Positions 41,501-54,401 of a stretch of DNA of 64,000 bases are shown here, one piece after another (position 1 is the stretch's first letter; every line of letters begins with the position of its first letter). The translations under genes and the position numbers were made by a program. Under the pieces are notes generated by a model. It saw only the letters and a program-made list of their open reading frames with translations, searched no databases and was not told the origin of the DNA. The DNA is from an uncultured Alphaproteobacteria bacterium (GTDB lineage: Bacteria > Pseudomonadota > Alphaproteobacteria > Rhizobiales > Rhizobiaceae): NCBI GenBank assembly GCA_963838155.1, contig CAWIQE010000038.1, forward strand, positions 43,498 to 107,497. Direction: 5' to 3'.

Positions 41501-43039
41501 TCAGGCGGCCGCGGCCTCACCCGAGGCGGCCATGATCTCTTCCTTGGACGCGTCGCATCCGAACTCGGCGGAAATCCTCCCCCGGCGCATGACGATGACG
41601 CGGTGCGCGATGCTGAGGCACTCGGCGACCTCCGAGGTGGAGAAGAGTACGGCGAGCCCCGCCTTCGCCCGCTCGCCGAGCAGGCGGAAGACCTCCGCCT
41701 TCGCGCCGATGTCGATGCCGCGGCTCGGCTCGTCGAGGAGGAGCGCCCGCGGCTCGGTCGTCAGCATCTTGCCGATGACGACCTTCTGCTGGTTGCCGCC
41801 CGACAGCGACCCGATCGGGACGTCGCCGCCGGCGGTCTTCACGTGGACGTCGCGGATCGAGGCGTCGATCAGCTCCGCCTCGCGCGATCGCGACAGCAGC
41901 ATGCCCCGCACGAAGGCGCCGATGCTGGCCAGCGACAAATTGGACCCGACGGTCATCGTCTGAACGAGGCCGTCGCGCTGGCGATCCTCGGGAACGAGCG
42001 ACAGCCCCGCCGCGATGCGCTCCGCGATCGTCAGCCGCGAGACGTCCTCGCCGTCGAGCAGGACCCGTCCGCCGGCAAGCGGCGCCCGCCCGGCGACGGC
42101 TTCGAGCAGTTCCGTCCGGCCGGCCCCCATGAGGCCGTAGATGCACACGATCTCGCCGGCCCTGATGTCGAGCGACAGGTGGTCGACGATCAGCCGGCCG
42201 GTGCCCGACGTGTCCGCCACGCTGACGTCCTCGATCGACAGGACCGGATCGCCGAAGGCGTAGCCGTCCGGCGGGGACCCGAGGTCGTAGTTCTCGCCGA
42301 CCATGTTGCGCACGATCCACTCGAGGTCGATGTCCTTCGCCTCGGCCGTCGCCGTGATCACCCCGTCCCGCAGCACGACCGCGTAGTCCGTGATCTGCAG
42401 CGCTTCCTCGAGATGGTGCGAGATGTAGACGATGGACACGCCCCGGTCCGTCAGGTCGCGGATCACGCGGAAGAGCACCTCGACCTCGCTGGCGCTCAGC
42501 GCCGAGGTGGGCTCGTCCATGATCAGGATGCGCGAGTCGACCGACAGCGCGCGCGCGATCTCGACAATCTGCTGCTGCCCGAGGCGCAGGTCCTGCACGA
42601 GGTCGAGCGGGTCGATCGCCTCCTCCAGCTCCTCCATCAGCCGGGCGGTCTGCCGCGCCTCCTCGGCGAAGTCGACGCCGGCGGCCGACGTCAGTTCCCG
42701 GCCCATGAAGATGTTGTCTCTTACGCTGAGGTTGGGCGCGAGGCTGAGTTCCTGGTGGATGATCGAGATGCCCTTTTCGGTCGCTTCCACCGCCGAGGCG
42801 AAGGCGACCTCTTCCCCGTCGAGCTCGATCGTGCCCGAGGTGGGCCGCTCGACGCCCGAGAGGATCTTCATCAGCGTCGACTTGCCCGCGCCGTTCTCGC
42901 CGAAGAGCGTCGTCACCTTGCCGCGATGGATGTCGAAGTTGACGCCCTTCAGCGCGTGGGTCCCGCCGTAGGTCTTCACCACGTTGCGGGCGGAAAGGAC
43001 GACCTCGCCGCGGCCCGTCTCGGTCTTTGCGGCGCCCAT
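41501..43039 (-). CDS. sugar/polyol ABC transporter ATP-binding protein (duplicated ABC domains, RbsA-like)
   Basis: ATG 43039 overlaps the upstream stop (TGATG). GENGAGKST and GLMGAGRTE Walker A motifs; LSGGNQQKV signature. 512 aa. Confidence 0.92.
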   Translation of the reverse strand: MGAAKTETGRGEVVLSARNVVKTYGGTHALKGVNFDIHRGKVTTLFGENGAGKSTLMKILSGVERPTSGTIELDGEEVAFASAVEATEKGISIIHQELSLAPNLSVRDNIFMGRELTSAAGVDFAEEARQTARLMEELEEAIDPLDLVQDLRLGQQQIVEIARALSVDSRILIMDEPTSALSASEVEVLFRVIRDLTDRGVSIVYISHHLEEALQITDYAVVLRDGVITATAEAKDIDLEWIVRNMVGENYDLGSPPDGYAFGDPVLSIEDVSVADTSGTGRLIVDHLSLDIRAGEIVCIYGLMGAGRTELLEAVAGRAPLAGGRVLLDGEDVSRLTIAERIAAGLSLVPEDRQRDGLVQTMTVGSNLSLASIGAFVRGMLLSRSREAELIDASIRDVHVKTAGGDVPIGSLSGGNQQKVVIGKMLTTEPRALLLDEPSRGIDIGAKAEVFRLLGERAKAGLAVLFSTSEVAECLSIAHRVIVMRRGRISAEFGCDASKEEIMAASGEAAAA

Positions 43040-43701
43040 CACTGCACGCTCAGCCGGACCGGCGTGACCAGCCAGTTCTTCGGGTTGATCATCAGGAATG
43101 CGCCGACCACCGAAACCGTCTTGCCGTCGAGCTTCGAGGTGTCCACCTTGGACAGCACCTCCTTCTTCATCTCCTTGTTCAGCGCCGCGCCGGCGTTCTG
43201 GTACTCGATCTGGTTCTTGAACTGGCCGAACTTGATCGTGCCGATCGCGTCGCGAAGGTCCGTCCCGTTGATCGCCGGCCCGGTCTGGACGCGGATCTTG
43301 ACGTCGTCGGGCACGCCATCGACCTTGATCGGGTAGATGCCCGACTGGCCCTCCCCGGCGACGCCGGTGAACTTGACGGCCATCTCCGGACCCATGGTCG
43401 CGTCGACGCCGTATTTCTTGGCGGCCGCCGTCTGGTCGGCCGCGATCGCCTTGGCGAGCGTCGCCGCGTCGACGGCGCGCTTCTCCACCGCCGCCTGCAC
43501 CTTCGGGAATTCGCTCTGCCCGTAGGCCTCCGGCGAGAAGCCGGCCTTGCGGGTGTCGCCGGACGAGCCGATCGTCACCACCGCCGTGTCCAGCCCCATG
43601 GCGACGACGAGGACGACGACTGCGACGGCGATCGCCGCGCGGCGCAGTCCGGGCCCCTTGCGGCGGTGCGTCCCTGCGAGAGCTGCAGAACCCATGGCCA
43701 T
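43039..43701 (-). CDS. DUF2291 family membrane-anchored periplasmic protein
   Basis: ATG 43701 after GAGAGG. N-terminal TM, then FSPEAYGQSEFPKVQAAVEKRAVDAATL... and a C-terminal ...INPKNWLVTPVRLSVQ. The family commonly rides in RbsABC-type sugar-alcohol importer operons. Confidence 0.7.
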   Translation of the reverse strand: MAMGSAALAGTHRRKGPGLRRAAIAVAVVVLVVAMGLDTAVVTIGSSGDTRKAGFSPEAYGQSEFPKVQAAVEKRAVDAATLAKAIAADQTAAAKKYGVDATMGPEMAVKFTGVAGEGQSGIYPIKVDGVPDDVKIRVQTGPAINGTDLRDAIGTIKFGQFKNQIEYQNAGAALNKEMKKEVLSKVDTSKLDGKTVSVVGAFLMINPKNWLVTPVRLSVQ

Positions 43702-43709
43702 TGGACCTC

Positions 43710-44711
43710 TCACTCCGATTTTCCGTTGGTGGACGATTGTCGAGGCGCGCCGATCCCGGCAACCAGCGCCCGGGCGGTGATTTCGTCGGTGATGAGGCCG
43801 CTGAGGTACCGGCTTTCCAGGATCGACTCGATCGCCCCGACCTTCACCTTGCCGCCGGCGATCGCGACGATCCTGCGGGCCTCGAGCGCCTCGCGGCCGA
43901 GGCCGAGCATGCGCTCGGAAAGCGCCGTCTCGACGGGGCGGCCATGGCGGTCGAAGAAATGGCCGAGCACCTCGCCGACGCCGCCGTCGCGCTTCACGTC
44001 GTCGATCTCGCTCGGCTCGATCATGCCGGTCGCGACCAGCGAGGCCTCGCGCTCGGCCGTGCCGATGCCGACGAACATGAGGTCCGCCGCGCGCGCCAGG
44101 TCGATGACGGCGCCGACCCCGCGCTGGCCGAGCAGGACCTCGCGGTCTTCCACCGTGTTGGCGAAGAAGGGGACGGGCATGACATAGGCCTGCGCGCCGG
44201 TCCGCTCCGTCAGCCGGTAGATGACGTCGTGCGGATTGGCCGCGAATTTCCGGGTAAGGCCACCGAAGAGCGACACGAAGCGCACGTCGCTCGCCGAGGT
44301 GCGCGGCAGGTTTTCCACGCTTGCCGCCAGGGTGCGTCCGTGGCCGACGCCGATCAGCTTGTTCTCGCCGCGCTCGATCTCGAGCTTGAGGAAATTGGCG
44401 CCGGCGATGCCGAGCGCCCGGAGCGGCAGGTCGTCCTGGTCGAAGTCCGGCACCACCTCGCAGGTGTCGAGGCCGTATTCCTTCGACAGCGCCTGCTCGA
44501 GTTCGACGCATTCGCTGATGTCGCCGTCGATGAAGACCTTCACCAGTCCCTCCTGGTTGGCCTTCATGATCAGCCGGTGCGCCTTCAGGCTCGTCAGCCC
44601 GAGACGCTTCGCCACCTGCGCCTGGGTCAGGCCGCCGGCGTAGTGCAGCCACGCCGCGCGCGTCGCAAGGCTGATGGTCTGGTCGCGCAACGGAACGGCG
44701 CCGGGCTTCAT
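43710..44711 (-). CDS. eryD: SorC/DeoR-type sugar-binding transcriptional regulator (EryD-like)
   Basis: ATG 44711 after GGGAGGAG. HTH AAWLHYAGGLTQAQVAKRLGLTSLKAHRLI plus a SorC sugar-phosphate-binding domain. Located directly after eryC. Confidence 0.8.
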   Translation of the reverse strand: MKPGAVPLRDQTISLATRAAWLHYAGGLTQAQVAKRLGLTSLKAHRLIMKANQEGLVKVFIDGDISECVELEQALSKEYGLDTCEVVPDFDQDDLPLRALGIAGANFLKLEIERGENKLIGVGHGRTLAASVENLPRTSASDVRFVSLFGGLTRKFAANPHDVIYRLTERTGAQAYVMPVPFFANTVEDREVLLGQRGVGAVIDLARAADLMFVGIGTAEREASLVATGMIEPSEIDDVKRDGGVGEVLGHFFDRHGRPVETALSERMLGLGREALEARRIVAIAGGKVKVGAIESILESRYLSGLITDEITARALVAGIGAPRQSSTNGKSE

Positions 44712-44728
44712 GCTGTCTCCTCCCAAGA

Positions 44729-44788
44729 ATGATATTTCTATCATTCACTAAAAAATTTTTCACATACGGTCGCGTTTGTCAATCGGGG
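44729..44788 (-). promoter_or_regulatory. promoter/operator block, copy B (upstream of eryD)
   Basis: Palindrome ATGATA-TTTC-TATCAT (44729-44744). A TTGACA on the minus strand (44782-44777) lies exactly 32 nt from the palindrome. About 80% identical over 60 nt to 48941-49000. Confidence 0.6.
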
Positions 44789-44844
44789 CGCTGAAGATTC
44801 GCCCCCTCCCGCCCCCTCCCGCCCCTGTCCCGCGAGGCTTCCGC

Positions 44845-45780
44845 TCATCCCCGGCGAAGCGTCGCGGCGCCGGTGTCCACGTGCTTCGCCCAGAACGCGA
44901 CCAATTCCCTGAGCGCCGGCACCACGTCGCGGTCGGTGGGCTCGCGCTCGCGGAACGACAGTTCGAGACATATCTCGTTGTCCGTCCCGCCGCCCGCTCT
45001 GACCGCCTCGATCAGCTTTTCCGGCTGGATCCGCCCCTCGGCGTTGTAGCGCTCGGTGAAGGGCCAGTGGCCGCCCTTGTTCATCGACGACTGCTTGACG
45101 TGGATGATCGGCGAGCGCGTCGGGAACGCGCGGGCCCAGGCGAACGGGTCGGTGTCGTCGGGGTTCGGCGAGGTTACGTCGCCGTGGTCGATGTCGACCA
45201 TCATCCACATCGGGATCGCGAAGCCGGCGGCTTCCAGCCGGTCCTGCAGATGCCCGCAGGCGGCGATGGTCTCGCCGAACTCGCGCCCGACCGACATCGG
45301 CTCCCAGAACAGGTGATCGAGCCCCGCCTGCCGGGCATGCTCTGCGACCTCCGCCCAGCAGTCGACGGCGATCCGGATCATGTCCTCGCGCCGGACGGGA
45401 TCGTCGTAGTCCTTGAGCGTCAGGATCGCGAACTGCGTGCCGACGCTCTTCGCCCCGAGATCGGCCGAAATGTCGGCGAAGGTCTTGAACCAGTCGACGT
45501 AGTAGCGCCGCACGTCCCGGTCCGGATGGCCGAAATGGTTGAGACGGCCGTAGGGGCCGGTCATGCCCGAGGTGATCTCGACGCCCGTGCGGGCCGTCGC
45601 GCGGTTGAAGGCGCGCACGAACCGCCGGACGGTCGCCGCAGGCCAGCCCGGATTGACGAATTCATGGGTCAGCTGGACGTATTTCAGGCGGATCTCGTGG
45701 GCGATCGTGTCGATCAGGTCGTCCGGCTCGGCGAAGCGGTTGACCAGCGGATTGGTGTTGACGGACAGGGTAAAGGCCAT
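44845..45780 (-). CDS. eryC: xylose-isomerase-like TIM-barrel protein, EryC-type tetrulose-4-phosphate racemase
   Basis: ATG 45780 (MAFTLSVNTNPLVNRFAEPDDLIDTIAHEIRLKYVQLTHEF...). 311 aa. Position directly after eryB. Confidence 0.8.
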   Translation of the reverse strand: MAFTLSVNTNPLVNRFAEPDDLIDTIAHEIRLKYVQLTHEFVNPGWPAATVRRFVRAFNRATARTGVEITSGMTGPYGRLNHFGHPDRDVRRYYVDWFKTFADISADLGAKSVGTQFAILTLKDYDDPVRREDMIRIAVDCWAEVAEHARQAGLDHLFWEPMSVGREFGETIAACGHLQDRLEAAGFAIPMWMMVDIDHGDVTSPNPDDTDPFAWARAFPTRSPIIHVKQSSMNKGGHWPFTERYNAEGRIQPEKLIEAVRAGGGTDNEICLELSFREREPTDRDVVPALRELVAFWAKHVDTGAATLRRG

Positions 45781-45818
45781 GGGTCGGGTTCCGTTTGCTC
45801 CGGGTATTCGGTCGGGAG

Positions 45819-47333
45819 TCACTCCGCCGCGACGTCGCGCTCTTCGAACCAGGCCGCGAACCGCTCTCTCTCTGCGGGCGACATGTGGCGGGCATGCTTG
45901 GTGCGCCGCTCGACGACGTCCTGCGCCGTCTGCGCCCACTCGGTGCGAATGACGAATTCCGCCTCGCGGGCATGGAAGTCCGGTCCGAAGGTCTCGCCGA
46001 GGTCGGCGAGAGAGGTCGCGCCGTCGAGGAGCGCGTGCATCCGCGTTCCGTAGAGACGGCCGTAATGCTTCAGCAGCGAGGCGGGGAGCCACGGATAGCG
46101 CGCCCGGGCCTCGGCGAGGAACTGCTCGAAGTCGGCGTTGGCGATGTCGCCGCCCGGCAGGTGCGCGGTCCGGGTCCAGGGCTTCTTCATGTCGGGGAAG
46201 AACGGCTGCAGCTTCTCCAGCGCATGCTCGGAGAGCTTTCTGAACGTCGTGATCTTGCCGCCGAAGACGGAGAGCAGCGGCGCCGCGCCGTCGCGGCTGT
46301 CGACGTCGAAGATGTAGTCGCGCGTCACCGCGCTCGGGTTTTCCGTGTTGTCGTCGTAGAGCGGCCGGACCCCGGAGAACGAGTGCAGCACGTCGTCGCG
46401 CCCGAGGGGGCGCTTGAAGTAGCGGTTGAGGACCGTCAGCAGGTAGTCGATCTCGTCGTCTTCCGCCCTCACCTCTTCGGGCGGCCCGTCATAGGGAATG
46501 TCGGTGGTCCCGACGAGCGCCAGGTTCCCCTCGTACGGGTTGATGAAGATCACCCGCTTGTCGGTGTTCTGGACGAGGTAGGCGTTCGGCCCCTCCCAGA
46601 ACTTCGGGACGACGATGTGGCTTCCCTTGACCAGGCGCACGCTGCGCTTGGAGTTGATGCCGGCGACCTCGCCGATGATGCGGTTGACCCAGGGCCCGGC
46701 CGCGTTGACGACCGCCCGGGCGCGCAACTCGAAGGAGCCTCCCGAACGGCCCGAAAGCGTCGCGGACCAGGTCTTCCCGTCGCGCCGCAGCCCCGTGCAG
46801 GCCGTGCGGGTCAGGATCCTCGCACCCCTCTCGCGCGCATCGACCGCGTTCAGCACGACGAGCCGCGCGTCGTCCACCCAGCAGTCGGAATATTCGAAGG
46901 CGCGCGTGAACTCGTCCTTGATCGGCGCGCCCTCGGGGGCCGTCCTCAGGTTCAGGGTCCGCGTCCCCGGAAGCCGTTTCCGGCCGCCGAGATGGTCGTA
47001 GAGGAAGAGGCCGAGCCGCACCAGCCAGGCCGGCCGGTCGATGGGGCTGTGGGGCAGGACGAAGCGGAGCGGCCAGATGATGTGCGGCGCCGATTCCAGA
47101 AGGACCTCGCGCTCGATGAGCGCCTCGCGCACCAGGCGGAACTCGTAGTATTCGAGATAGCGCAGCCCCCCGTGGACCAGCTTTCCGGAGCGCGAGCTGG
47201 TACCCTCCGCGAGGTCGTCCTTCTCGCACAGCACCACCGAGAGGCCGCGGCCCGCCGCGTCGCGCGCGATCCCCGCCCCGTTGACGCCGCCTCCGATCAC
47301 CAGGAGGTCGACGATGTCGTCGTTGTCGCTCAC
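45819..47333 (-). CDS. eryB: FAD-dependent glycerol-3-phosphate dehydrogenase family protein, EryB-type erythritol-phosphate dehydrogenase
   Basis: GTG 47333 overlaps the eryA stop (GTGA). DLLVIGGGVNGAGIARDAAGRG dinucleotide fold and GKLVHGGLRYLE. 504 aa. Confidence 0.85.
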   Translation of the reverse strand: MSDNDDIVDLLVIGGGVNGAGIARDAAGRGLSVVLCEKDDLAEGTSSRSGKLVHGGLRYLEYYEFRLVREALIEREVLLESAPHIIWPLRFVLPHSPIDRPAWLVRLGLFLYDHLGGRKRLPGTRTLNLRTAPEGAPIKDEFTRAFEYSDCWVDDARLVVLNAVDARERGARILTRTACTGLRRDGKTWSATLSGRSGGSFELRARAVVNAAGPWVNRIIGEVAGINSKRSVRLVKGSHIVVPKFWEGPNAYLVQNTDKRVIFINPYEGNLALVGTTDIPYDGPPEEVRAEDDEIDYLLTVLNRYFKRPLGRDDVLHSFSGVRPLYDDNTENPSAVTRDYIFDVDSRDGAAPLLSVFGGKITTFRKLSEHALEKLQPFFPDMKKPWTRTAHLPGGDIANADFEQFLAEARARYPWLPASLLKHYGRLYGTRMHALLDGATSLADLGETFGPDFHAREAEFVIRTEWAQTAQDVVERRTKHARHMSPAERERFAAWFEERDVAAE

Positions 47334-48922
47334 GTCCCGCGCTCCAGCTTGTTCATCCGTTCGAGTTTCGCATTCCCGCCGGCCTGCGCCATGGCCCGCC
47401 AGACGGGCCGCAGCGCCTCGTGCGCGTCCACGAAGGAAGCGAAGAGGCGGTCGTATTCCGCCGCGAGCGCCGCGTCGGGAGGTTCGGCGTCGCCGAGGAG
47501 GGAATCGACCCATTCCGCCGTGCAGGCGTCCATGGTGGGATAGATGCCGAGGCACACGGCCGCCGTCATCGCGGCGCCTGCCGCTCCCGCCTCCTCGCGC
47601 GCGCTCGTGCGGGTCGCCGACCGGGTGACGGCTCCGAAGATCCGCCTGAAGGACCGGTTGCGCGCTGCTCCGCCGGACAGCCGGATCTCGTCGGGGACGG
47701 GCCCCATGGCCGCGAAGCAGTCGCGCGCCGCAAACGCGAGGCCCTCGAGGACCGCGCGTGCCAGGTCGGCGAAGCCGTGGTCGAGCGACAGGCCGAGGAA
47801 GCCCGCGCGCGCATTCGCGTCGACGAACGGGCCCCGCTCGCCGGCGAGCGAAATGTAGGGCTGGTAGAGAAGCGACGCCGGGCGGGCCGCCTCGACCCAC
47901 CGGTCGAGAGCCTTCATGAGGTCGGCCCGGTCCGGGCTGAGCCCGCCGGCCGCGAGCACGTCGCGGGCGAGCCCGACCAGCCAGTCGATGTTCAGCGTCG
48001 CCGCCATGTTGGACTGCAGCTGCGCGAAGGCGCCCGGCACCGGCATCGCGATCGTGTATCCGGAAGCGCTGTCGTTGAGCACGACGTCCCCGACCGACCG
48101 CGCGAGCCGCATGTGCATGCCCGTCGAACCCACGATCGAGCAGCCGACGTCGCGCGTCGGATGGTAGAGGCCGCCGCCGAGCGCCGTCGCGACGATGTCG
48201 ACATAGCCGAGGACGACCGGCGTCCCTTCGGCGAGCCCGGTCGCCGCCGCCGCTTCCGCGTCGAGCCCGTCGTGATGCGAGAGGCCGTCCAGCATCGGCG
48301 GCAGGAGCGATTTCTGCCGCGTGAGGCCGAGAATCCCGATCGCCTCGTCGCTATAGGCCTTCCGCCTGTAGTCGCCGAAGGTGAAGGTTCCCTCGCTCGG
48401 GTCCGTGGCGCGCACCCCGGTGAGCTTGAAATAGAGCCAGTCCTTGCAGTGAAAGGCCGTCCGCGCCCTCCCGAGCGCCTCGGCGGCGTTGTCCCTCAGC
48501 CATTGCAGCTGCGCGCCCTGCTGGCAGGCGTTGAGCCCGGTTCCCGTCAGTTCGAACCGCCGCCGGTCGTCCGGCCGCGCCCGCGCCGCTTCCACCAGCC
48601 GGCCCGCCCGCGCGTCGAGCCACAGGAGCGCCGGCATGACGGGGTCGCCCTTTCCGTCGATCAGCCAGGTGCCGTCGCCCTGCCCGGTCACCGCGACGGC
48701 CGCCGTGCGCGCCTTCAGGCCGCCGATCTTCTCGCCGAGCGCGGCGAGCGTCGCCGCCGTCTTCGCCCAGGTGGCGCCGAGGTCCTGCTCCACGCCGCCG
48801 TCGCCGACGCTCGCATAGTCGTTGGGGACGGACGCCACGTCGATCTGGCGCCCCGACAGGTCGAACGCCACGGACTTGATGACCGAGGTTCCGGCATCGA
48901 CGCCGATCAGGATATCCTTCAT
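47330..48922 (-). CDS. eryA: FGGY-family carbohydrate kinase, EryA-type erythritol kinase
   Basis: ATG 48922 after GGGGAGG. ILIGVDAGTSVIKSVAFD, GQGDGTWL and FHCKDWLYFKLTG. 530 aa. First gene of a kinase-dehydrogenase-TIM barrel triad. Confidence 0.82.
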   Translation of the reverse strand: MKDILIGVDAGTSVIKSVAFDLSGRQIDVASVPNDYASVGDGGVEQDLGATWAKTAATLAALGEKIGGLKARTAAVAVTGQGDGTWLIDGKGDPVMPALLWLDARAGRLVEAARARPDDRRRFELTGTGLNACQQGAQLQWLRDNAAEALGRARTAFHCKDWLYFKLTGVRATDPSEGTFTFGDYRRKAYSDEAIGILGLTRQKSLLPPMLDGLSHHDGLDAEAAAATGLAEGTPVVLGYVDIVATALGGGLYHPTRDVGCSIVGSTGMHMRLARSVGDVVLNDSASGYTIAMPVPGAFAQLQSNMAATLNIDWLVGLARDVLAAGGLSPDRADLMKALDRWVEAARPASLLYQPYISLAGERGPFVDANARAGFLGLSLDHGFADLARAVLEGLAFAARDCFAAMGPVPDEIRLSGGAARNRSFRRIFGAVTRSATRTSAREEAGAAGAAMTAAVCLGIYPTMDACTAEWVDSLLGDAEPPDAALAAEYDRLFASFVDAHEALRPVWRAMAQAGGNAKLERMNKLERGT

Positions 48923-48940
48923 TCCGGCAGCCTCCCCACG

Positions 48941-49000
48941 ATGATATTTCTATCATCACATAAAAAAAATTTCACATCGGGGCGCATTTGTCAATCGAGC
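48941..49000 (-). promoter_or_regulatory. promoter/operator block, copy A (upstream of eryA)
   Basis: Palindrome ATGATA-TTTC-TATCAT (48941-48956) 18 nt from the eryA ATG, an A/T tract, and a minus-strand TTGACA (48994-48989) 32 nt from the palindrome. Confidence 0.6.
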
Positions 49001-49075
49001 GGCCCTTTCGGACGGCCTCTCCCGGCATGACAACCCGGCACGACGCCCCGGTCATGGGCGCGGCCCGAGGGCGCC

Positions 49076-50794
49076 TCAGCCCACGGACGTGCCGCCCCCG
49101 GCATCGAGCGCGATCCCGTGCCGGGTGACCGCGATCGCGCGCACCTCCGCCGCCTCGCGGTCCCGCCGCCCGGCCGGCCAGCCGCAGGCGCCCGCGACGA
49201 TCCCGGCGAGTTCGTCGAGCGCCTCCGGCGTCAGCCGGCCGGTGATCGCGATGGTCGTCCTGCGGAAGATGACGTCCGCCAGCGACCCGACGAGCTCCTC
49301 GTCCGAGATCTGCGCGATCTCGCCGACGGAATAGTCCGGCAGGCTCGAAAGCGGCCGGTCGCCGTGCGAGCCGGCCCGGGCGGCGAACGCTTCCGCCCGG
49401 GTTCCGTATCGATCGAGGAGGCAGGCCACGCGCCCGGCCTCGAGTCCCGAGGAGGCCGACACCCGGCCGATCCACGCGGCCCGCGCGGCTTCGCCCGCCG
49501 GAAAGTCCCGGCCCCCGCCGATGGCGACATGGCGTGTCGAGACCCGGCGTTCCTTCCCGACGAGGGCGAGCACCCGGTCGGCCGCCTCCTCCGCGAAGCC
49601 CCGGAACGTCGTCCACTTGCCGCCGACGAGCGAGAGCACCGGCGTCCGTCCCTCCGCAAGGACGTCCTCCCTGATCGAGTGGTCGCGGCTGATGCGGCCC
49701 GGGTCGTCGACGTCGGCGGCCGGCAGCGGCCGCACGCCGCAATAGCGGTAGACGACCTGCCCCGGCGCGACCGCGACGCCCGGAAACATCGCCGCGACGG
49801 CCTCCAGCATGTAGGCGGCCTCGGCATCCTCGCAGACCGCCGCGTCGGGATCGTCGGCACGGATGTCGGTGGACCCGACGAGCGCGAGGCCGAAATAGGG
49901 ATAGACGAGGCAGATGCGCCCGTCCGGCGACCCGAAATAGACCATGCGCCCGTCGAGCTGGCGCACGAGTTCGGGATTGTCGAGCAGCAGGTGCGACCCC
50001 TTGGTGCCGCCGATATAGGTCCGCTCGAGGCCGAGTTTCGCGTTGACCCTGTCGATCCAGGCGCCGCCGGCGTTGACGACGACGTCGGCCGTCACCCGAA
50101 GCGCCTCGCCCGTCGTCTCGTCGCGAAGCAGCAACGCGTCTCCGTCCCGCCCGGCGAGCCCCGTGTGCGTGAGCGCGACCGAACCGGGGTTCGCGCGGCC
50201 GCCGTCGAGCACCAGTTCCAGGCCGAGCCGCTCCGGCAGCGTCACCGCCGCGTCGTAATAGCTGCCCGTCGCGACGATGTCCGGCTTCAGCGCCGGAAGC
50301 CCCGCGAGCGACCTGCGGCGCAGGGCGAGCCCGTGCCGCGGCATCGCGCGCTCGCGGCTGCCGAAGAGGTCGTAGAGGCCGAGGCCGAGTTCGGTGATCA
50401 GCACCCCGCGGTCGGACAGTTTCGCGGGGACCCCGAGGACGCGCGCGATCGACGGCACGATGCCCCCGAACCAGGAGAAGATCGGGATGACCGTCTTCAG
50501 CGGCCGGACTGCGTGCGGCGCGTTCCCGAGCAGGAGGTTCCTTTCGAGCGTCGACTGCGCGACGAGGCGGAACTCGCCGGTTTCCAGGTATTTCAGCCCC
50601 CCGTGGATGAGCCGCGACGGGGCCGCGCTCGCCCCGGAGCAGATGTCGGACTTGTCGCACAGGAGGCAGTCGACGCCCTGCATCGACAGGTCGCGGTAGA
50701 GGCCGGCGCCGTTGATGCCGGCGCCGGCGATGACGACCGGCACGTGCCGCATCGACCGCGCCTTCGAGAGCGCCGCCTCGCGCGAGGTGGTCAC
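49076..50794 (-). CDS. second FAD-dependent GlpD/EryB-like dehydrogenase (paralogue)
   Basis: VVIAGAGINGAGLYRDLSMQG, SRLIHGGLKYLETGEFRL and a C-terminal GlpD-type domain. GTG 50794 overlaps the upstream kinase stop (GTGA); alternative ATG at 50752. Confidence 0.82.
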   Translation of the reverse strand: MTTSREAALSKARSMRHVPVVIAGAGINGAGLYRDLSMQGVDCLLCDKSDICSGASAAPSRLIHGGLKYLETGEFRLVAQSTLERNLLLGNAPHAVRPLKTVIPIFSWFGGIVPSIARVLGVPAKLSDRGVLITELGLGLYDLFGSRERAMPRHGLALRRRSLAGLPALKPDIVATGSYYDAAVTLPERLGLELVLDGGRANPGSVALTHTGLAGRDGDALLLRDETTGEALRVTADVVVNAGGAWIDRVNAKLGLERTYIGGTKGSHLLLDNPELVRQLDGRMVYFGSPDGRICLVYPYFGLALVGSTDIRADDPDAAVCEDAEAAYMLEAVAAMFPGVAVAPGQVVYRYCGVRPLPAADVDDPGRISRDHSIREDVLAEGRTPVLSLVGGKWTTFRGFAEEAADRVLALVGKERRVSTRHVAIGGGRDFPAGEAARAAWIGRVSASSGLEAGRVACLLDRYGTRAEAFAARAGSHGDRPLSSLPDYSVGEIAQISDEELVGSLADVIFRRTTIAITGRLTPEALDELAGIVAGACGWPAGRRDREAAEVRAIAVTRHGIALDAGGGTSVG

Positions 50795-52314
50795 GGCGCC
50801 GCTCCCCCGGCCCCGTCGAGCTCCGCCCAGAAGGGCCGCATCGCTTCGGCCAGCCGGGTGTAGAGGTCGAATCTCCGCCCGAGCGCGCCGCCTCGCTCCG
50901 GATCCGGCCGGAAGGTCCCGGCGATTTCGCAGCAGGCGGAAGCCGCCGCCCGGAGGTCGTCGAAGACGCCGACCGCGACGCCCGCGCAGAGCGCCGCGCC
51001 GAGCGCGGCCGCCTCGCTTTCCGCCGGCACCTCGACGGCGCGGCCGAGGCCGTCGGCGAAGAGCTGCCCCATGCGCGGACGGGCGGAGCCGCCCCCCGTC
51101 AGCCGGACGCGCTTGACGTCGAAGGCGCCGGCCAGGATGTCGACATGGGTGCGGTGGTTGAAGACGATGCCCTCCAGCACCGCCTGCAGCATGTCGGCCT
51201 GCCCGTGCCAGGCCTTGAGGCCGAAGAACGCCGCGCTCGCCGGCTCCGGATGGGGAGAGCCGTAGAGGAACGGATGATAGACGACCGGCGCCGCCTCGAG
51301 CGCCGCCCGGTCGAGCTCCGCCTCCATGGCGGACAGGAGCGCGCCCGGATCGCGTTCGCCGAACTGGCGCACGACCCACTCCAGGTTGGCCGAGGAAGCC
51401 GGCGAGATCGACATGTTCATCCACGAGCCGCGGGTGACGCCCGACCGGCAGGCCCAGCGCGGACCGCCCGGATGGTCGTCGACGCGCGGCGCGTCCGACA
51501 GCACTTCGTTGATGCTGAAGGTGCCGGCCGTGATCGTCAGGTCGCCGGCATCGAGGTTGCCCATGCCGACGGCCGCCGCTGTGACGTCATGCAGGCCGGC
51601 GGCGACCGGCGTACCCGCCAGGAGCCCCGTCGCCCTCGCCGCGGCCGCCGTGACCGCTCCGGCGCGCGCCGCCGGCTCCAGGACGGGAGGCAGCGCCGCG
51701 GCGATGTCCGAGAGCCCGTAGAGCGCCAGCACGGCCTCGCTGTAGTCCTGTTCGTGAAGGTCGAAGAACGAGGTACTCGCCTCCGTCAGGTCCGTCGCGA
51801 TCTCGCCCGTCAGGCAGAACCGCAGCCAGTCCTTGCAGAAGAAGGCGTGCCCGATCGCGGCGAAGCGGTCCGGCTCGTGCCGCCGGATCCAGGCGAGCAG
51901 TGCCGCCGCCGAATAGGGATAGGGATGCTGGCCCGTCAGGGGCAGCGCCCGGTCCAGCACGCCGTCGGACCGCCACCCGGCGACGATGCCCGCGGCGCGG
52001 CTGTCGAGCGACAGGATCCCGCGGCCGAGCGGCCGTCCGTCGCGGCCGAGGCAGTAGAGGCCGTCGCCGTGGCCGGTGACCGAGACGCCCGCGACGGCGG
52101 AAGCCGCGATGCCCGCCGCGGCGACGGCCTCGCGGATCGCTCCCGCGGCGGCCGACCACGCGGCCGCCATGTCGCGCTCGACATGGGCGGGCCGCGGGAC
52201 ATGCTGCTCCACCGTCGCCTTGCCGGTGGCGACGACCCGGCCGGCGGTATCGACCACGATCGCCTTGGTCACCGTCGATCCGCTGTCGAGGCCGACGAGG
52301 TAGGGGCCCGCCAT
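50791..52314 (-). CDS. second FGGY-family carbohydrate kinase (EryA/LyxK-like paralogue)
   Basis: YLVGLDSGSTVTKAIVVD, GHGDGLYCL and FFCKDWLRFCLTGE. 507 aa. Starts 25 nt after the rpiB stop. Confidence 0.85.
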   Translation of the reverse strand: MAGPYLVGLDSGSTVTKAIVVDTAGRVVATGKATVEQHVPRPAHVERDMAAAWSAAAGAIREAVAAAGIAASAVAGVSVTGHGDGLYCLGRDGRPLGRGILSLDSRAAGIVAGWRSDGVLDRALPLTGQHPYPYSAAALLAWIRRHEPDRFAAIGHAFFCKDWLRFCLTGEIATDLTEASTSFFDLHEQDYSEAVLALYGLSDIAAALPPVLEPAARAGAVTAAAARATGLLAGTPVAAGLHDVTAAAVGMGNLDAGDLTITAGTFSINEVLSDAPRVDDHPGGPRWACRSGVTRGSWMNMSISPASSANLEWVVRQFGERDPGALLSAMEAELDRAALEAAPVVYHPFLYGSPHPEPASAAFFGLKAWHGQADMLQAVLEGIVFNHRTHVDILAGAFDVKRVRLTGGGSARPRMGQLFADGLGRAVEVPAESEAAALGAALCAGVAVGVFDDLRAAASACCEIAGTFRPDPERGGALGRRFDLYTRLAEAMRPFWAELDGAGGAAP

Positions 52315-52339
52315 CGTCCGCTCCCGCAGGGTGCCGGGC

Positions 52340-52807
52340 CTAGGAGGCCCGCGCTTCCCGGAAGCGGGCGTCGACCTGGTTCATCTTCTCCACCTTGCGC
52401 GCCGAGCCGCCGCCCTGGAACTCGTTGGCGAGCCAGATGTCGGCCAGCATCTTGGCGACGTTCACCCCCGTGGTCAGCGCGCCCATGGTGATCACCTGGG
52501 CGTTGTTGGAGGCGATGGCACGTTCGGCCGAATAGGGATCCATGACGGTCGCGGCGCGCACGCCGGGCACCTTGTTGGCGGTGATCGCCATTCCGAGACC
52601 CGTGCCGCAGATGAGGATGCCGCGCTCGAAATCGCCCTTCGAGATGCGCTCGGCGAGCTCCACCGCGACGTCCGGATAGTCGACCGGATTGTCGTCGTGG
52701 ACGCCGATGTCCTCCACGGTGTGGCCCTTCGAGCGCAGGTGCTCGACGAGCGCGTCCTTCATGGGCAGGCCCAGGTGGTCGGTACCGATGATGATTGTCT
52801 TGCTCAT
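52340..52807 (-). CDS. rpiB: ribose-5-phosphate isomerase B family (EryI-type erythrose-4-phosphate isomerase by context)
   Basis: 155 aa. MSKTIIIGTDHLGLPMKDALVEHL and GILICGTGLGMAITANK, LacAB/RpiB motifs. Confidence 0.88.
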   Translation of the reverse strand: MSKTIIIGTDHLGLPMKDALVEHLRSKGHTVEDIGVHDDNPVDYPDVAVELAERISKGDFERGILICGTGLGMAITANKVPGVRAATVMDPYSAERAIASNNAQVITMGALTTGVNVAKMLADIWLANEFQGGGSARKVEKMNQVDARFREARAS

Positions 52808-52849
52808 TGTCTGAACTCTCTTTCGGTCGGGGATGGAACGGATGTCATG

Positions 52850-53620
52850 CTATCCGCCGATGACGGCGGCACATTGGTCGAGGATCCCGAGATAGCCTTC
52901 GACGGTCCACGCCGAACGGCCGATGAAGAGCCCGTCGACCGCAGGGCGGCCGATCAGGTCCTCGCAGTTGCCCGGGTTGACGCTGCCGCCGTAGAGGACG
53001 GGCGGCGGCGCGGAAAGCAGCCCGGCCGCCACCGCGCGGATCCGCGCCTGCCGCTCGTCGGCATAGTCCGGCGAAGCCGGGATTCCGTGTTCGCCGATCG
53101 CCCAGACCGGCTCGTAGGCGAAGAGGATCGTCGCACCCTCGCGCGCCTCGCCGAGGAAGGCGAGCGCTGCCTCGGTCTGGCGCGCGAGCACCGCGTCGGC
53201 CCGGCCCGCTTCGCGCTCCTCCATGGTCTCGCCGACGCACACGAGCGGCGTGAGGCCATGGCGGAGCGCGGCCGCCACCTTGCGTCCGACCGTCTCGTCG
53301 GTCTCGCCGAAATGCGCCCGCCGCTCGCTGTGCCCGAGTTCGACGAGATCCAGGCCGCAATCCGCCAGCATCGCCGGCGAGATCTCCCCGGTCCATGCCC
53401 CGGCGTCCTCCCAGTGCATGGTCTGCGCCCCCACCTTGACGTCGGTGCCGGCGAGCGCCGCCTTGACCTCGCGCACCGCGGTGAAGGGCGGAACGACGAA
53501 GGGCTGGATCGACGGATGCCGGAAGTCGCGCTCCAGAAGGCCGCCGGCGAAGTCGAGCGCCTGCGCCAGCGTCTTGTTCATTTTCCAGCTCGTGCCGATC
53601 CAGTAACGCTTGTCAGCCAT
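52850..53620 (-). CDS. tpiB: triosephosphate isomerase family (TpiB/EryH-type tetrulose-phosphate isomerase by context)
   Basis: 256 aa. WKMNKT, ELGHSERR and AYEPVWAIG TIM motifs. Confidence 0.88.
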   Translation of the reverse strand: MADKRYWIGTSWKMNKTLAQALDFAGGLLERDFRHPSIQPFVVPPFTAVREVKAALAGTDVKVGAQTMHWEDAGAWTGEISPAMLADCGLDLVELGHSERRAHFGETDETVGRKVAAALRHGLTPLVCVGETMEEREAGRADAVLARQTEAALAFLGEAREGATILFAYEPVWAIGEHGIPASPDYADERQARIRAVAAGLLSAPPPVLYGGSVNPGNCEDLIGRPAVDGLFIGRSAWTVEGYLGILDQCAAVIGG

Positions 53621-54401
53621 GTGTCGTGCTCCTTGCCGCCGCGCCGGCGATCTCCAGCTCGATGCCGGCCTCCTCCAGCGGCGCCGACGCCTCCGCCGGC
53701 AGCGCCGCGCCGGTCAGGACCGCGTCGAACGCCGTGAGGTCGGCGAGGAAATGCAGCGCCGACCGGCCGAATTTCCGATGGTCGGCCAGGAGGAAGCGGC
53801 GCTCGGCCGCCCGGATCATCAGCCGCTTGTAGTGGACGACCTCCTCGTCCTGGTGGTAGGCCGAGGCGCCCTGGATCGCCGAGGTGGAGACGAAGGCGAT
53901 GTCGGCCCTCAGCCCCCGCAGAGCCTCCTCCGCCACGAGGCCGAAGAACCCGTGGAACGTCCTGTGATAGCGTCCCCCGAGGGCGATCAGGTCGATGCCC
54001 GGCTTGCCCGCGAGTTCGTTGATGACGGCGAGGTTGCTCGTGATGACCGTCAGCGGTTGTCGGCCGGGCAGGAATTCCGCTATCGCATTGGCGGTCGACC
54101 CGTCGTCGACCATGATCGTCTGCCCGGGCTCGATGCGGCGGGAAGCCGCCGCCGCGATCCGGCGTTTTTCCTCCGCCGCCTGTCGCTCGCGGTACCTGAA
54201 ATCGCTCTCGAACTTGGAGCTGGACTGGATGGATGCCCCGCCGCGCACCTTGCGCAAGAGCCCCGACTGCTCGAGATCGTCCAGATCGCGATGCACGGTC
54301 ATGCGGCTGACGCCGAAACGGGCGGCGAGGTCGTCGACGCTCGCGCTGCCCGCGTCCATCAGCATGTCCATTATTCCCTGCCGGCGCGTTTCGGCCTTCA
54401 T
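53613..54401 (-). CDS. DeoR family transcriptional regulator (EryR-like)
   Basis: ATG 54401 (MKAETRRQGIMDMLMDAGSASVDDLAARFGVSRMTVHRDLDDLE...) plus a DeoR C-domain. Its stop overlaps the tpiB start by 8 nt. Confidence 0.85.
   Translation of the reverse strand: MKAETRRQGIMDMLMDAGSASVDDLAARFGVSRMTVHRDLDDLEQSGLLRKVRGGASIQSSSKFESDFRYRERQAAEEKRRIAAAASRRIEPGQTIMVDDGSTANAIAEFLPGRQPLTVITSNLAVINELAGKPGIDLIALGGRYHRTFHGFFGLVAEEALRGLRADIAFVSTSAIQGASAYHQDEEVVHYKRLMIRAAERRFLLADHRKFGRSALHFLADLTAFDAVLTGAALPAEASAPLEEAGIELEIAGAAARSTTHG

Follow-up and report, generated by a model that had tools for sequence, protein, structure and literature searches.

An accessory FGGY kinase and GlpD-family dehydrogenase cassette in a Rhizobiaceae ery locus probably feeds a four-carbon polyol into shared tetrose-phosphate isomerases

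Two bacterial pathways of erythritol catabolism are recognised, a Brucella type (EryABCHI) and a Mycolicibacterium smegmatis type in which a dehydrogenase acts first (bioRxiv 10.1101/2022.10.03.510612). In the Brucella type, EryA and EryB convert erythritol via L-erythritol-4-phosphate into L-3-tetrulose-4-phosphate, which is the same compound as D-erythrulose-1-phosphate (D-Eu1P) (PMC10733421, PMC12780249, bioRxiv 10.1101/2022.10.03.510612), and this product is turned by EryC into L-Eu1P, by LerI (EryH) into D-erythrulose-4-phosphate (D-Eu4P) and by DerI (EryI) into erythrose-4-phosphate (PMC10733421). In M. smegmatis, the EltD and DthD dehydrogenases, the LerK and DerK kinases and the isomerases LerI and DerI bring L-threitol, D-threitol and erythritol to L-Eu1P or D-Eu4P and from there to erythrose-4-phosphate (PMC10733421). 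The EryH-EryI pair was described in a 2026 paper as a 'metabolic funnel' common to several pathways (PMC13753588), a description that is compatible with a further entry point. Another set of reactions, reported for erythritol in Propionibacterium pentosaceum (Wawszkiewicz 1968), consists of a kinase, a dehydrogenase yielding L-Eu1P and an aldolase yielding dihydroxyacetone phosphate (DHAP) and formaldehyde, and the corresponding genes were still unidentified in 2015 (PMC4437456). Here we analyse two adjacent genes, referred to as Kin2 and GlpD2, within a stretch of 64,000 nucleotides (the window) from an uncultured bacterium of the Rhizobiaceae (assembly GCA_963838155.1, contig CAWIQE010000038.1, positions 43,498 to 107,497).

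The window contains a Brucella-type ery locus, in which eryA, eryB, eryC, eryD, eryR, an EryH-type triosephosphate isomerase (TIM), RpiB and a DUF2291/ABC importer occur together, and Kin2 and GlpD2 are located between rpiB and eryA. We propose that Kin2-GlpD2 probably constitutes an accessory two-enzyme cassette on the eryR-tpiB-rpiB operon that feeds a four-carbon polyol, via erythrulose-1-phosphate, into the shared isomerases. The features of the gene pair are as follows.

52315..52339, minus strand: spacer of 25 nt between rpiB and Kin2, with a GGGAG ribosome-binding site upstream of the Kin2 ATG at 52314
50791..52314, minus strand: Kin2, 507 amino acids (aa), predicted FGGY polyol kinase of an undescribed clade, with the Pfam domains FGGY_N and FGGY_C
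50791..50794, minus strand: GTGA, in which the stop of Kin2 overlaps the start of GlpD2, read from the sequence
49076..50794, minus strand: GlpD2, 572 aa, GlpD-family dehydrogenase dependent on flavin adenine dinucleotide (FAD), of an undescribed clade, with the Pfam domains DAO and DAO_C

These data confirm the 25-nt gap, the 507-aa kinase and the GlpD-family flavoprotein that had been noticed in an earlier, sequence-only reading of this DNA. Both genes are real and intact, and the assignment of the GlpD2 start to the GTG at 50794 (stop at 49076) is supported by the alignments of its homologues, which begin at residues 1-5. Kin2 is a member of the FGGY carbohydrate kinases, with full-length Pfam matches to FGGY_N (PF00370; 196.8 bits, E 5.8e-58) and FGGY_C (PF02782; 85.2 bits), and GlpD2, which shows the DAO (105 bits) and DAO_C (62 bits) domains and the motif AGAGINGAG at residues 23-31, is a FAD dehydrogenase of the GlpD/GlpO type. 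Nevertheless, both proteins fall under every curated NCBIfam (equivalog) cut-off. The best model for Kin2 was that of XylB (TIGR01312; 251.9 bits versus a cut-off of 380), and its score with the GlpK model TIGR01311 was 131.8 bits versus a cut-off of 590, whereas GlpD2 reached 247 of the required 360 bits with the GlpD model NF008899 and 218 of 352 with NF009906. Elsewhere in the same genome, contig 36 encodes a canonical GlpK (700.6 bits) and contig 15 a canonical GlpD (771 bits), so that the earlier view that the module is not GlpK/GlpD stood. With EryA and EryB the two proteins share superfamilies, gene order, locus, downstream isomerases and the predicted phosphorylate-then-oxidise logic, but Kin2 is only 30% identical to the EryA of the window and GlpD2 32% to its EryB; the kinase motif pairs noted previously (GHGDGLYCL versus GQGDGTWL; FFCKDWLRFCLTGE versus FHCKDWLYFKLTGV) are present in the pairwise alignment. 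A recent duplication of eryAB was considered and rejected on account of these identities and of the separate clades described below.

Phylogenies against EryA/EryB, LyxK and GlpK/GlpD, which the sequence-only reading had suggested as a check, placed Kin2 and GlpD2 in clades of their own. EryB nests beside GlpD in the dehydrogenase tree (87 rows), where a branch of 3.6 changes per site, supported at 100 in the Shimodaira-Hasegawa-like approximate likelihood-ratio test (SH-aLRT), splits the GlpD2 clade from GlpD plus EryB. The kinase tree, for which E. coli GlpK, XylB, LyxK, AraB, FucK, RhaB and LsrK served as references, shows the Kin2 proteins in a single clade (SH-aLRT 99), EryA in another that excludes Kin2 (support 100, stem 1.66), and GlpK in a separate, distant one (support 100). 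Kin2 and GlpD2 are thus not orthologous to GlpK, GlpD, EryA or EryB. The characterised kinase nearest to the Kin2 clade is E. coli LyxK, with weak support (SH-aLRT 89) and long branches (1.54); it is the source of the automatic name of Kin2, but it lacks a GlpD-type partner, and no lyx/sgb-type neighbours were seen next to Kin2. The same lineage groups, i.e. Burkholderiaceae, Lichenihabitantaceae, a Rhizobiales/Paracoccus group, Halomonadaceae, and acetic acid bacteria plus the window, are recovered in both trees, indicating that the pair travelled together.

Like GlpK/GlpD, the cassette combines an FGGY kinase with a membrane-type FAD dehydrogenase. Residues invariant in GlpD, EryB and GlpD2 include H50, Y55, H233, R254, R317, R332, K354 and R359 (E. 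coli GlpD numbering), which we take to be active-site positions of the E. coli GlpD structure, and their conservation would fit a phosphorylated substrate and GlpD-type chemistry. GlpD2 differs from GlpD by fixed replacements that include R54K and Y334H, and by an insertion of about 19 residues that contains VIPIFSWF. No solved structure was found for a member of either clade, the nearest ones being E. coli GlpD (2QCU) and GlpO for GlpD2 and E. coli XylB (2ITM) for Kin2. Database names of the homologues are generic ('glycerol-3-phosphate dehydrogenase/oxidase', 'FGGY-family carbohydrate kinase' and, at JGI, 'L-xylulokinase'), and a protein-cluster look-up with a GlpD2 homologue returned nothing more specific than clusters named 'G3P dehydrogenase', of which many were actinobacterial.

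The conservation of the gene pair was analysed in 80 loci fetched with GlpD2, with flanks of up to 10 kb, in which Kin2 was counted at an identity of at least 45% and neighbouring genes were grouped by all-against-all clustering of open reading frames (ORFs); the contigs that carry the nearest homologues (kinase, 83%; dehydrogenase, 64-78%) lie outside this set. Kin2 was located upstream of GlpD2 on the same strand in 66 of the 80 loci, from Alpha-, Beta- and Gammaproteobacteria, a pairing far beyond chance. Homologues with identities of 50-83% were found in Paraburkholderia, Caballeronia, Salinicola, Aidingimonas, Carnimonas, Gluconobacter, Asaia, Ameyamaea and Tanticharoenia, as well as in Lichenihabitans, Lichenibacterium, Shinella, Chelativorans, Martelella, Paracoccus, Geminicoccus and a Vulcanimicrobiota metagenome-assembled genome (MAG). 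TpiB/RpiB or eryA/B/C were present within the fetched flanks (10 kb or less) in 44 of the 66 cassette loci, and 54 carried at least one tetritol-linked gene (EryH-type TpiB, RpiB, eryABC, a LerK-like DAK kinase or a DUF2291-type ery transporter). The remaining 12 comprise five on short contigs (2.6-14.5 kb) and others with full 10-kb flanks. The 14 loci without Kin2 correspond to one monophyletic GlpD2 subclade (support 99), and none of them (0/14) showed a tetritol-linked gene. The survey of gene neighbourhoods, also proposed beforehand, therefore revealed a linkage to tetrose-phosphate isomerases that extends across phyla and holds even where eryABC are missing.

The arrangement of these loci differs among lineages. 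In Paraburkholderia and Caballeronia, Kin2-GlpD2 is either divergent from a DAK-EryC-EryB-EryA-EryD series or ends the series DUF2291, ABC, substrate-binding protein (SBP), TpiB, RpiB, Kin2, GlpD2, and in the acetic acid bacteria Gluconobacter and Asaia the order is Kin2, GlpD2, (X327), TpiB, (DeoR), RpiB, SBP, ABC, DAK, where X327 is a protein described below. In Salinicola endophyticus (L095 and L005; G003:C2, about 205-238 kb) the cluster reads Tkt<TpiB<DAK<RpiB>ZnADH>DUF2291-ABC-SBP>DeoR<ZnADH<Kin2>GlpD2>DhnA-type aldolase (ZnADH, zinc-dependent alcohol dehydrogenase; arrowheads, gene direction). This tetritol supercluster lacks eryABC, and a transketolase gene adjoins it, as tkt-tal adjoins eryR in the window. 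In Gluconobacter japonicus (L047:16912-20792), a canonical glpD (54% identical to EryB) and a GlpK-like FGGY kinase gene are located 5-8 kb downstream of Kin2-GlpD2-X327-TpiB; therefore, both systems coexist there side by side. The distance between the Kin2 and GlpD2 matches varies in relatives from 9 to about 320 nt, and it amounts to 760-890 nt where a DeoR gene intervenes, an arrangement seen in five of the 66 loci (L059, L064, L068, L071 and L078; Shinella, Martelella and Mesorhizobium hunchu). The GTGA overlaps at 50791-50794 and at the eryA/eryB junction (47333-47330) are both present, and the sequence-only reading had seen a meaning in their identity. Because this is an ordinary 4-nt start/stop overlap and the spacing varies in relatives, we consider the resemblance coincidental and not a mark of duplication.

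The loci of the Kin2-less subclade (L008, L010, L031, L038, L065 and L066 among them) have an organisation of their own. SBP and ABC genes are followed, in the opposite direction, by ZnADH, the GlpD2-like gene, a PfkB kinase, a DRL_cat oxidoreductase (PF21135) and E1alpha and E1beta genes, with E2/E3 nearby. Two of the 14 carry a distant FGGY kinase (34-36% identical), and no Tpi, Rpi or Ery genes were seen in these loci.

We then compared the occurrence of the cassette with that of the erythritol enzymes. With the EryC of the window as query, no match was obtained in seven of ten cassette genomes (Gluconobacter oxydans, Asaia sp., Salinicola endophyticus, Carnimonas nigrificans, Aidingimonas lacisalsi, Ameyamaea chiangmaiensis and the Vulcanimicrobiota MAG), and Shinella lacus, Lichenifustis and Geminicoccus did give an EryC match. 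An EryA orthologue was likewise not found in any of the four EryC-less genomes searched for it (G. oxydans, Asaia sp., S. endophyticus and C. nigrificans), the best match being Kin2 itself at 30-32% identity. All genomes checked have a housekeeping TpiA besides the TIM of the cluster, and the cluster-linked TIMs of all lineages form, together with the TpiB of the window, one clade (SH-aLRT 99). This clade, which takes in the cluster TIMs of genomes lacking ery genes as well, is separate from the housekeeping enzymes. In acetic acid bacteria and Halomonadaceae the cassette thus appears repeatedly to be accompanied by an EryH-type TIM and RpiB, with neither EryA nor EryC. Since the cassette stands alongside EryH/EryI-type isomerases in genomes that lack EryA/B/C, its product is predicted to be the Eu1P enantiomer other than that of EryB, i.e. 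L-Eu1P (D-3-tetrulose-4-phosphate), for which EryC is not needed.

In the window itself, all the genes of the locus are on the minus strand, in the order eryR, tpiB, rpiB, Kin2, GlpD2, a 153-nt AT-rich spacer, eryA, eryB, eryC, eryD and the DUF2291/ABC importer, and tkt and tal adjoin the locus divergently from eryR. The features that surround the gene pair are listed below.

53613..54401, minus strand: eryR, DeoR-family regulator with full-length NCBIfam matches of the DeoR/GlpR/AgaR type, first gene of the cassette-bearing operon; the start at 54401 was set from hidden Markov model (HMM) alignments, the ORF itself extending to 54548
52850..53620, minus strand: tpiB, TIM paralogue of the EryH/LerI type (NF000722, 395 bits)
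52340..52807, minus strand: rpiB, EryI/DerI-type isomerase (RpiB subfamily model, 170.9 bits, above the cut-off; DerI model, 149 bits, under the cut-off of 240)
48923..49075, minus strand: spacer of 153 nt with the eryA promoter/operator, ATTGACAA ... TGATAGAAATATCATCG ... GGGAGG
47330..48922, minus strand: eryA, erythritol kinase orthologue, 52-59% identical to EryA of other ery loci and in one clade with them (support 100)
45819..47333, minus strand: eryB, 834 bits with the GlpD model, 65-68% identical to EryB of other loci
44845..45786, minus strand: eryC, Eu1P 3-epimerase with a xylose-isomerase-like TIM barrel (Pfam AP_endonuc_2), 68-74% identical to EryC elsewhere
43710..44744, minus strand: eryD, SorC-family regulator with matches of the LsrR/DeoR(Bacillus) type, 56-62% identical to EryD elsewhere
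about 43039-43700, minus strand: importer gene, assigned to DUF2291 from the reading of its ORF, the Pfam score being that of its homologue in locus L044

A GlpD2 homologue was present in six of 30 relatives, being found in one of the three genomes of the same genus and in five of the 18 in the family. One congener (G006; locus L102, G006:C26) is collinear with the window over 43764-48922 and 52342-54401 at 75-77% nucleotide identity, but in it a stretch of 283 bp links rpiB to eryA, the segment corresponding to 48923-52341, with Kin2-GlpD2, being missing. The eryA promoter/operator block is kept in the rpiB-eryA spacer of this genome (L102:6570-6920; ATTGACAA ... TGAAAnTTTTT ... TGATAnAAnTATCATCGTnGGGAGG). 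The two loci therefore differ by a clean gain or loss of two genes between rpiB and the eryA promoter, and, as the congener has a complete ery locus minus exactly these two genes, the cassette is an add-on. The third congener lacks the entire ery locus. No terminator-like site was found on the minus strand from eryR to the GlpD2 stop, which makes co-transcription of Kin2-GlpD2 with eryR-tpiB-rpiB plausible. A strong 12-bp GC hairpin follows rpiB in G006 (z = -2.5), whereas no comparable or stable hairpin was found after GlpD2 in the window (z = 0.43).

Taking into account these contexts, we infer the catalytic steps, the substrate and the stereochemistry of the proposed route as follows. Kin2 would phosphorylate one of the terminal hydroxyls of a four-carbon polyol taken up by the cell, and GlpD2, presumably quinone-linked, would oxidise the carbinol beside the phosphate to give Eu1P; a tetritol-4-phosphate would yield this product because GlpD-type enzymes act on the carbinol that adjoins the phosphomethyl group. 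EryH/TpiB would then convert L-Eu1P into D-Eu4P and EryI/RpiB the latter into erythrose-4-phosphate, which might be taken up by the products of the adjacent tkt-tal genes. The route would share with that of M. smegmatis the funnel to erythrose-4-phosphate through TIM-type and RpiB-type isomerases, but there an oxidation dependent on nicotinamide adenine dinucleotide precedes phosphorylation, whereas the cassette would phosphorylate first and oxidise by means of a flavoprotein. The Propionibacterium pathway is likewise kinase-first and passes through L-Eu1P, the intermediate predicted here, and it ends in an aldolase, for which a similar gene follows GlpD2 in several lineages; in the window, where no aldolase of these types was found in the genome, the product would be isomerised instead.

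The aldolase-like genes are of two kinds. X327 (L024:11672-12655; also in L036, L040, L046, L059, L063 and others) is a protein of 327 aa with no Pfam match, whose C-terminus shows weak similarity (E 1e-5 to 1e-7) to DhnA-type class I aldolases, LsrF and ADH synthase. Its gene was seen in Gluconobacter, Ameyamaea, Shinella, Carnimonas and one of five Asaia loci, each time immediately after GlpD2, and in Salinicola the same position is occupied by a clear DhnA-type aldolase gene (PF01791). That X327 might be a divergent EryC was also considered and rejected, since it shows no similarity to EryC and gave only the weak DhnA/LsrF-type matches. Queries with the DhnA-type aldolase and with X327 found neither of them in the genome of the window.

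Regarding the polyol, L-Eu1P could be obtained from two substrates, according to the stereochemical reasoning that we propose, namely L-threitol-4-phosphate or D-erythritol-4-phosphate. We tentatively favour L-threitol as the substrate of Kin2. In L-threitol-4-phosphate the carbon to be oxidised would have a configuration like that in sn-glycerol-3-phosphate, as in the EryB substrate, so that both the stereochemical and the EryC constraints would be satisfied; furthermore, with L-threitol the cassette would not duplicate the role of EryA/B in the many genomes holding both systems, and LyxK, to which Kin2 is nearest, acts on a substrate of L-threo configuration. Erythritol phosphorylated at the opposite prochiral end is a second and somewhat less likely choice. 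It would give D-erythritol-4-phosphate, the product of the Propionibacterium kinase (EC 2.7.1.27).

Several points weigh against the assignment of the cassette to a four-carbon polyol route via L-Eu1P. Substrate, regiochemistry and product enantiomer are inferences for every member of the family, and the absence of EryC elsewhere rests on a single protein query per genome. EryC is present in the window, and a D-Eu1P product, e.g. from D-threitol, would be usable as well. The aldolase-like gene (X327 or DhnA-type) that follows GlpD2 in lineages without EryC could mean that a ketose-1-phosphate is cleaved rather than isomerised, which also fits polyols of five or six carbons. The sister GlpD2 subclade without Kin2 has a different context and the same fixed active-site differences, and the family is thus not tied to one substrate. 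Finally, L-threitol is rare in nature, whereas the cassette is common.

The handling of a C5 or C6 polyol, for instance ribitol, xylitol or an arabitol, would involve the same kinase and oxidation steps followed by aldolase cleavage of the ketose-1-phosphate to DHAP and glycolaldehyde or glyceraldehyde, the cassette sharing only transporter and regulator with the ery genes. The DhnA-type aldolase after GlpD2 in Salinicola and X327 in Gluconobacter, some Asaia, Ameyamaea, Shinella and Carnimonas are in agreement with such a function, as is the fact that the DUF2291-type transporter of Sinorhizobium meliloti also carries adonitol and L-arabitol (PMC3599248). However, the genome of the window yielded neither aldolase, its cassette shares an operon with tpiB-rpiB, the cassette comes with an EryH-type TIM and RpiB in all the lineages examined, Salinicola among them, and pentitol genes of the lalA/rbt type are not among the recurrent neighbours, so we regard this alternative as unlikely. 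Still less probable is that Kin2 is a ketose kinase acting on D- or L-erythrulose or L-xylulose, with GlpD2 acting on an unrelated phosphate ester. The grouping of Kin2 with LyxK and the database name 'L-xylulokinase' would agree with it, and erythrulose kinases do supply the same isomerases (PMC13753588), but the Kin2-to-GlpD2 order is kept on one strand in 66 loci over three proteobacterial classes, with a start/stop overlap in the window, and mirrors the logic of GlpK/GlpD and EryA/EryB. Moreover, many clusters already have a separate LerK-like DAK kinase, and a ketose phosphate would leave a GlpD-type dehydrogenase with no obvious role.

A redundant second glycerol kinase and glycerol-3-phosphate dehydrogenase is the least probable of the alternatives, and very improbable in itself, although the names of the homologues, the nearest solved structures (GlpD and GlpO) and the conserved residues presumed to form the GlpD active site all point in that direction. 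The glycerol system was rejected on the basis of the HMM scores, far under the curated GlpK/GlpD cut-offs, of the canonical GlpK and GlpD elsewhere in the genome (and the glpD and GlpK-like kinase genes near the cassette in G. japonicus), and of the trees with the 3.6 branch between GlpD2 and GlpD plus EryB; in addition, the neighbours are tetritol genes and never glpF or glpR. Thus, an uncharacterised phosphorylate-then-oxidise branch into the shared isomerases, as put forward in the sequence-only reading, is still the best interpretation, and the genomic context lends good support both to the branch and to its connection with the isomerases. The sequence-only interpretation is supported in part: as for its further suggestion that the branch serves a different polyol, erythritol phosphorylated at its other prochiral end would fit the context equally.

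The Kin2-GlpD2 pair does not figure in the survey of Brucella- and Sinorhizobium-type ery loci by Geddes et al. 2013 (PMC3599248), so that the module is absent from the loci of these types covered there, in agreement with the sequence-only reading, nor in the FGGY family survey (nine functions) or in the 2022 preprint's account of two known erythritol pathways, and no description of it was found in the literature on threitol kinase and threitol phosphate or among the curated models. It is conceivable, though speculative, that the pair represents a third, widespread bacterial tetritol route that is kinase-first, flavoprotein-dependent and EryC-independent, and passes through L-Eu1P, this intermediate being isomerised by EryH/EryI in the window or cleaved to DHAP and formaldehyde by DhnA-type or X327 proteins in Halomonadaceae and acetic acid bacteria; the latter variant would supply the missing genes of the Propionibacterium pathway (an EC 2.7.1.27-type kinase and an EC 4.1.2.2-type aldolase). 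If the proposed function is true, the cassette would be a third entry to tetritol catabolism, one that leads into the EryH/EryI funnel with no need of EryC, annotations as 'glycerol-3-phosphate dehydrogenase/oxidase' and 'L-xylulokinase' would be corrected in hundreds of cases, and the tetritol clusters of acetic acid bacteria, Halomonadaceae, Burkholderiaceae and lichen-associated Rhizobiales would be explained. It might also pinpoint the orphan Propionibacterium enzymes and provide natural L-Eu1P-forming or L-Eu1P-specific enzymes for the synthetic erythrulose-monophosphate (EuMP) formaldehyde cycle (PMC10733421). The presence or absence of just two genes between congeners constitutes a natural test case.

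Many of the carriers are lichen-associated Rhizobiales (Lichenihabitans, Lichenibacterium and Lichenifustis; loci L003, L007, L018, L030, L033, L042, L051, L069 and L013). Some lichen algae export erythritol or ribitol, and the distribution of the cassette hints at an ecological link.

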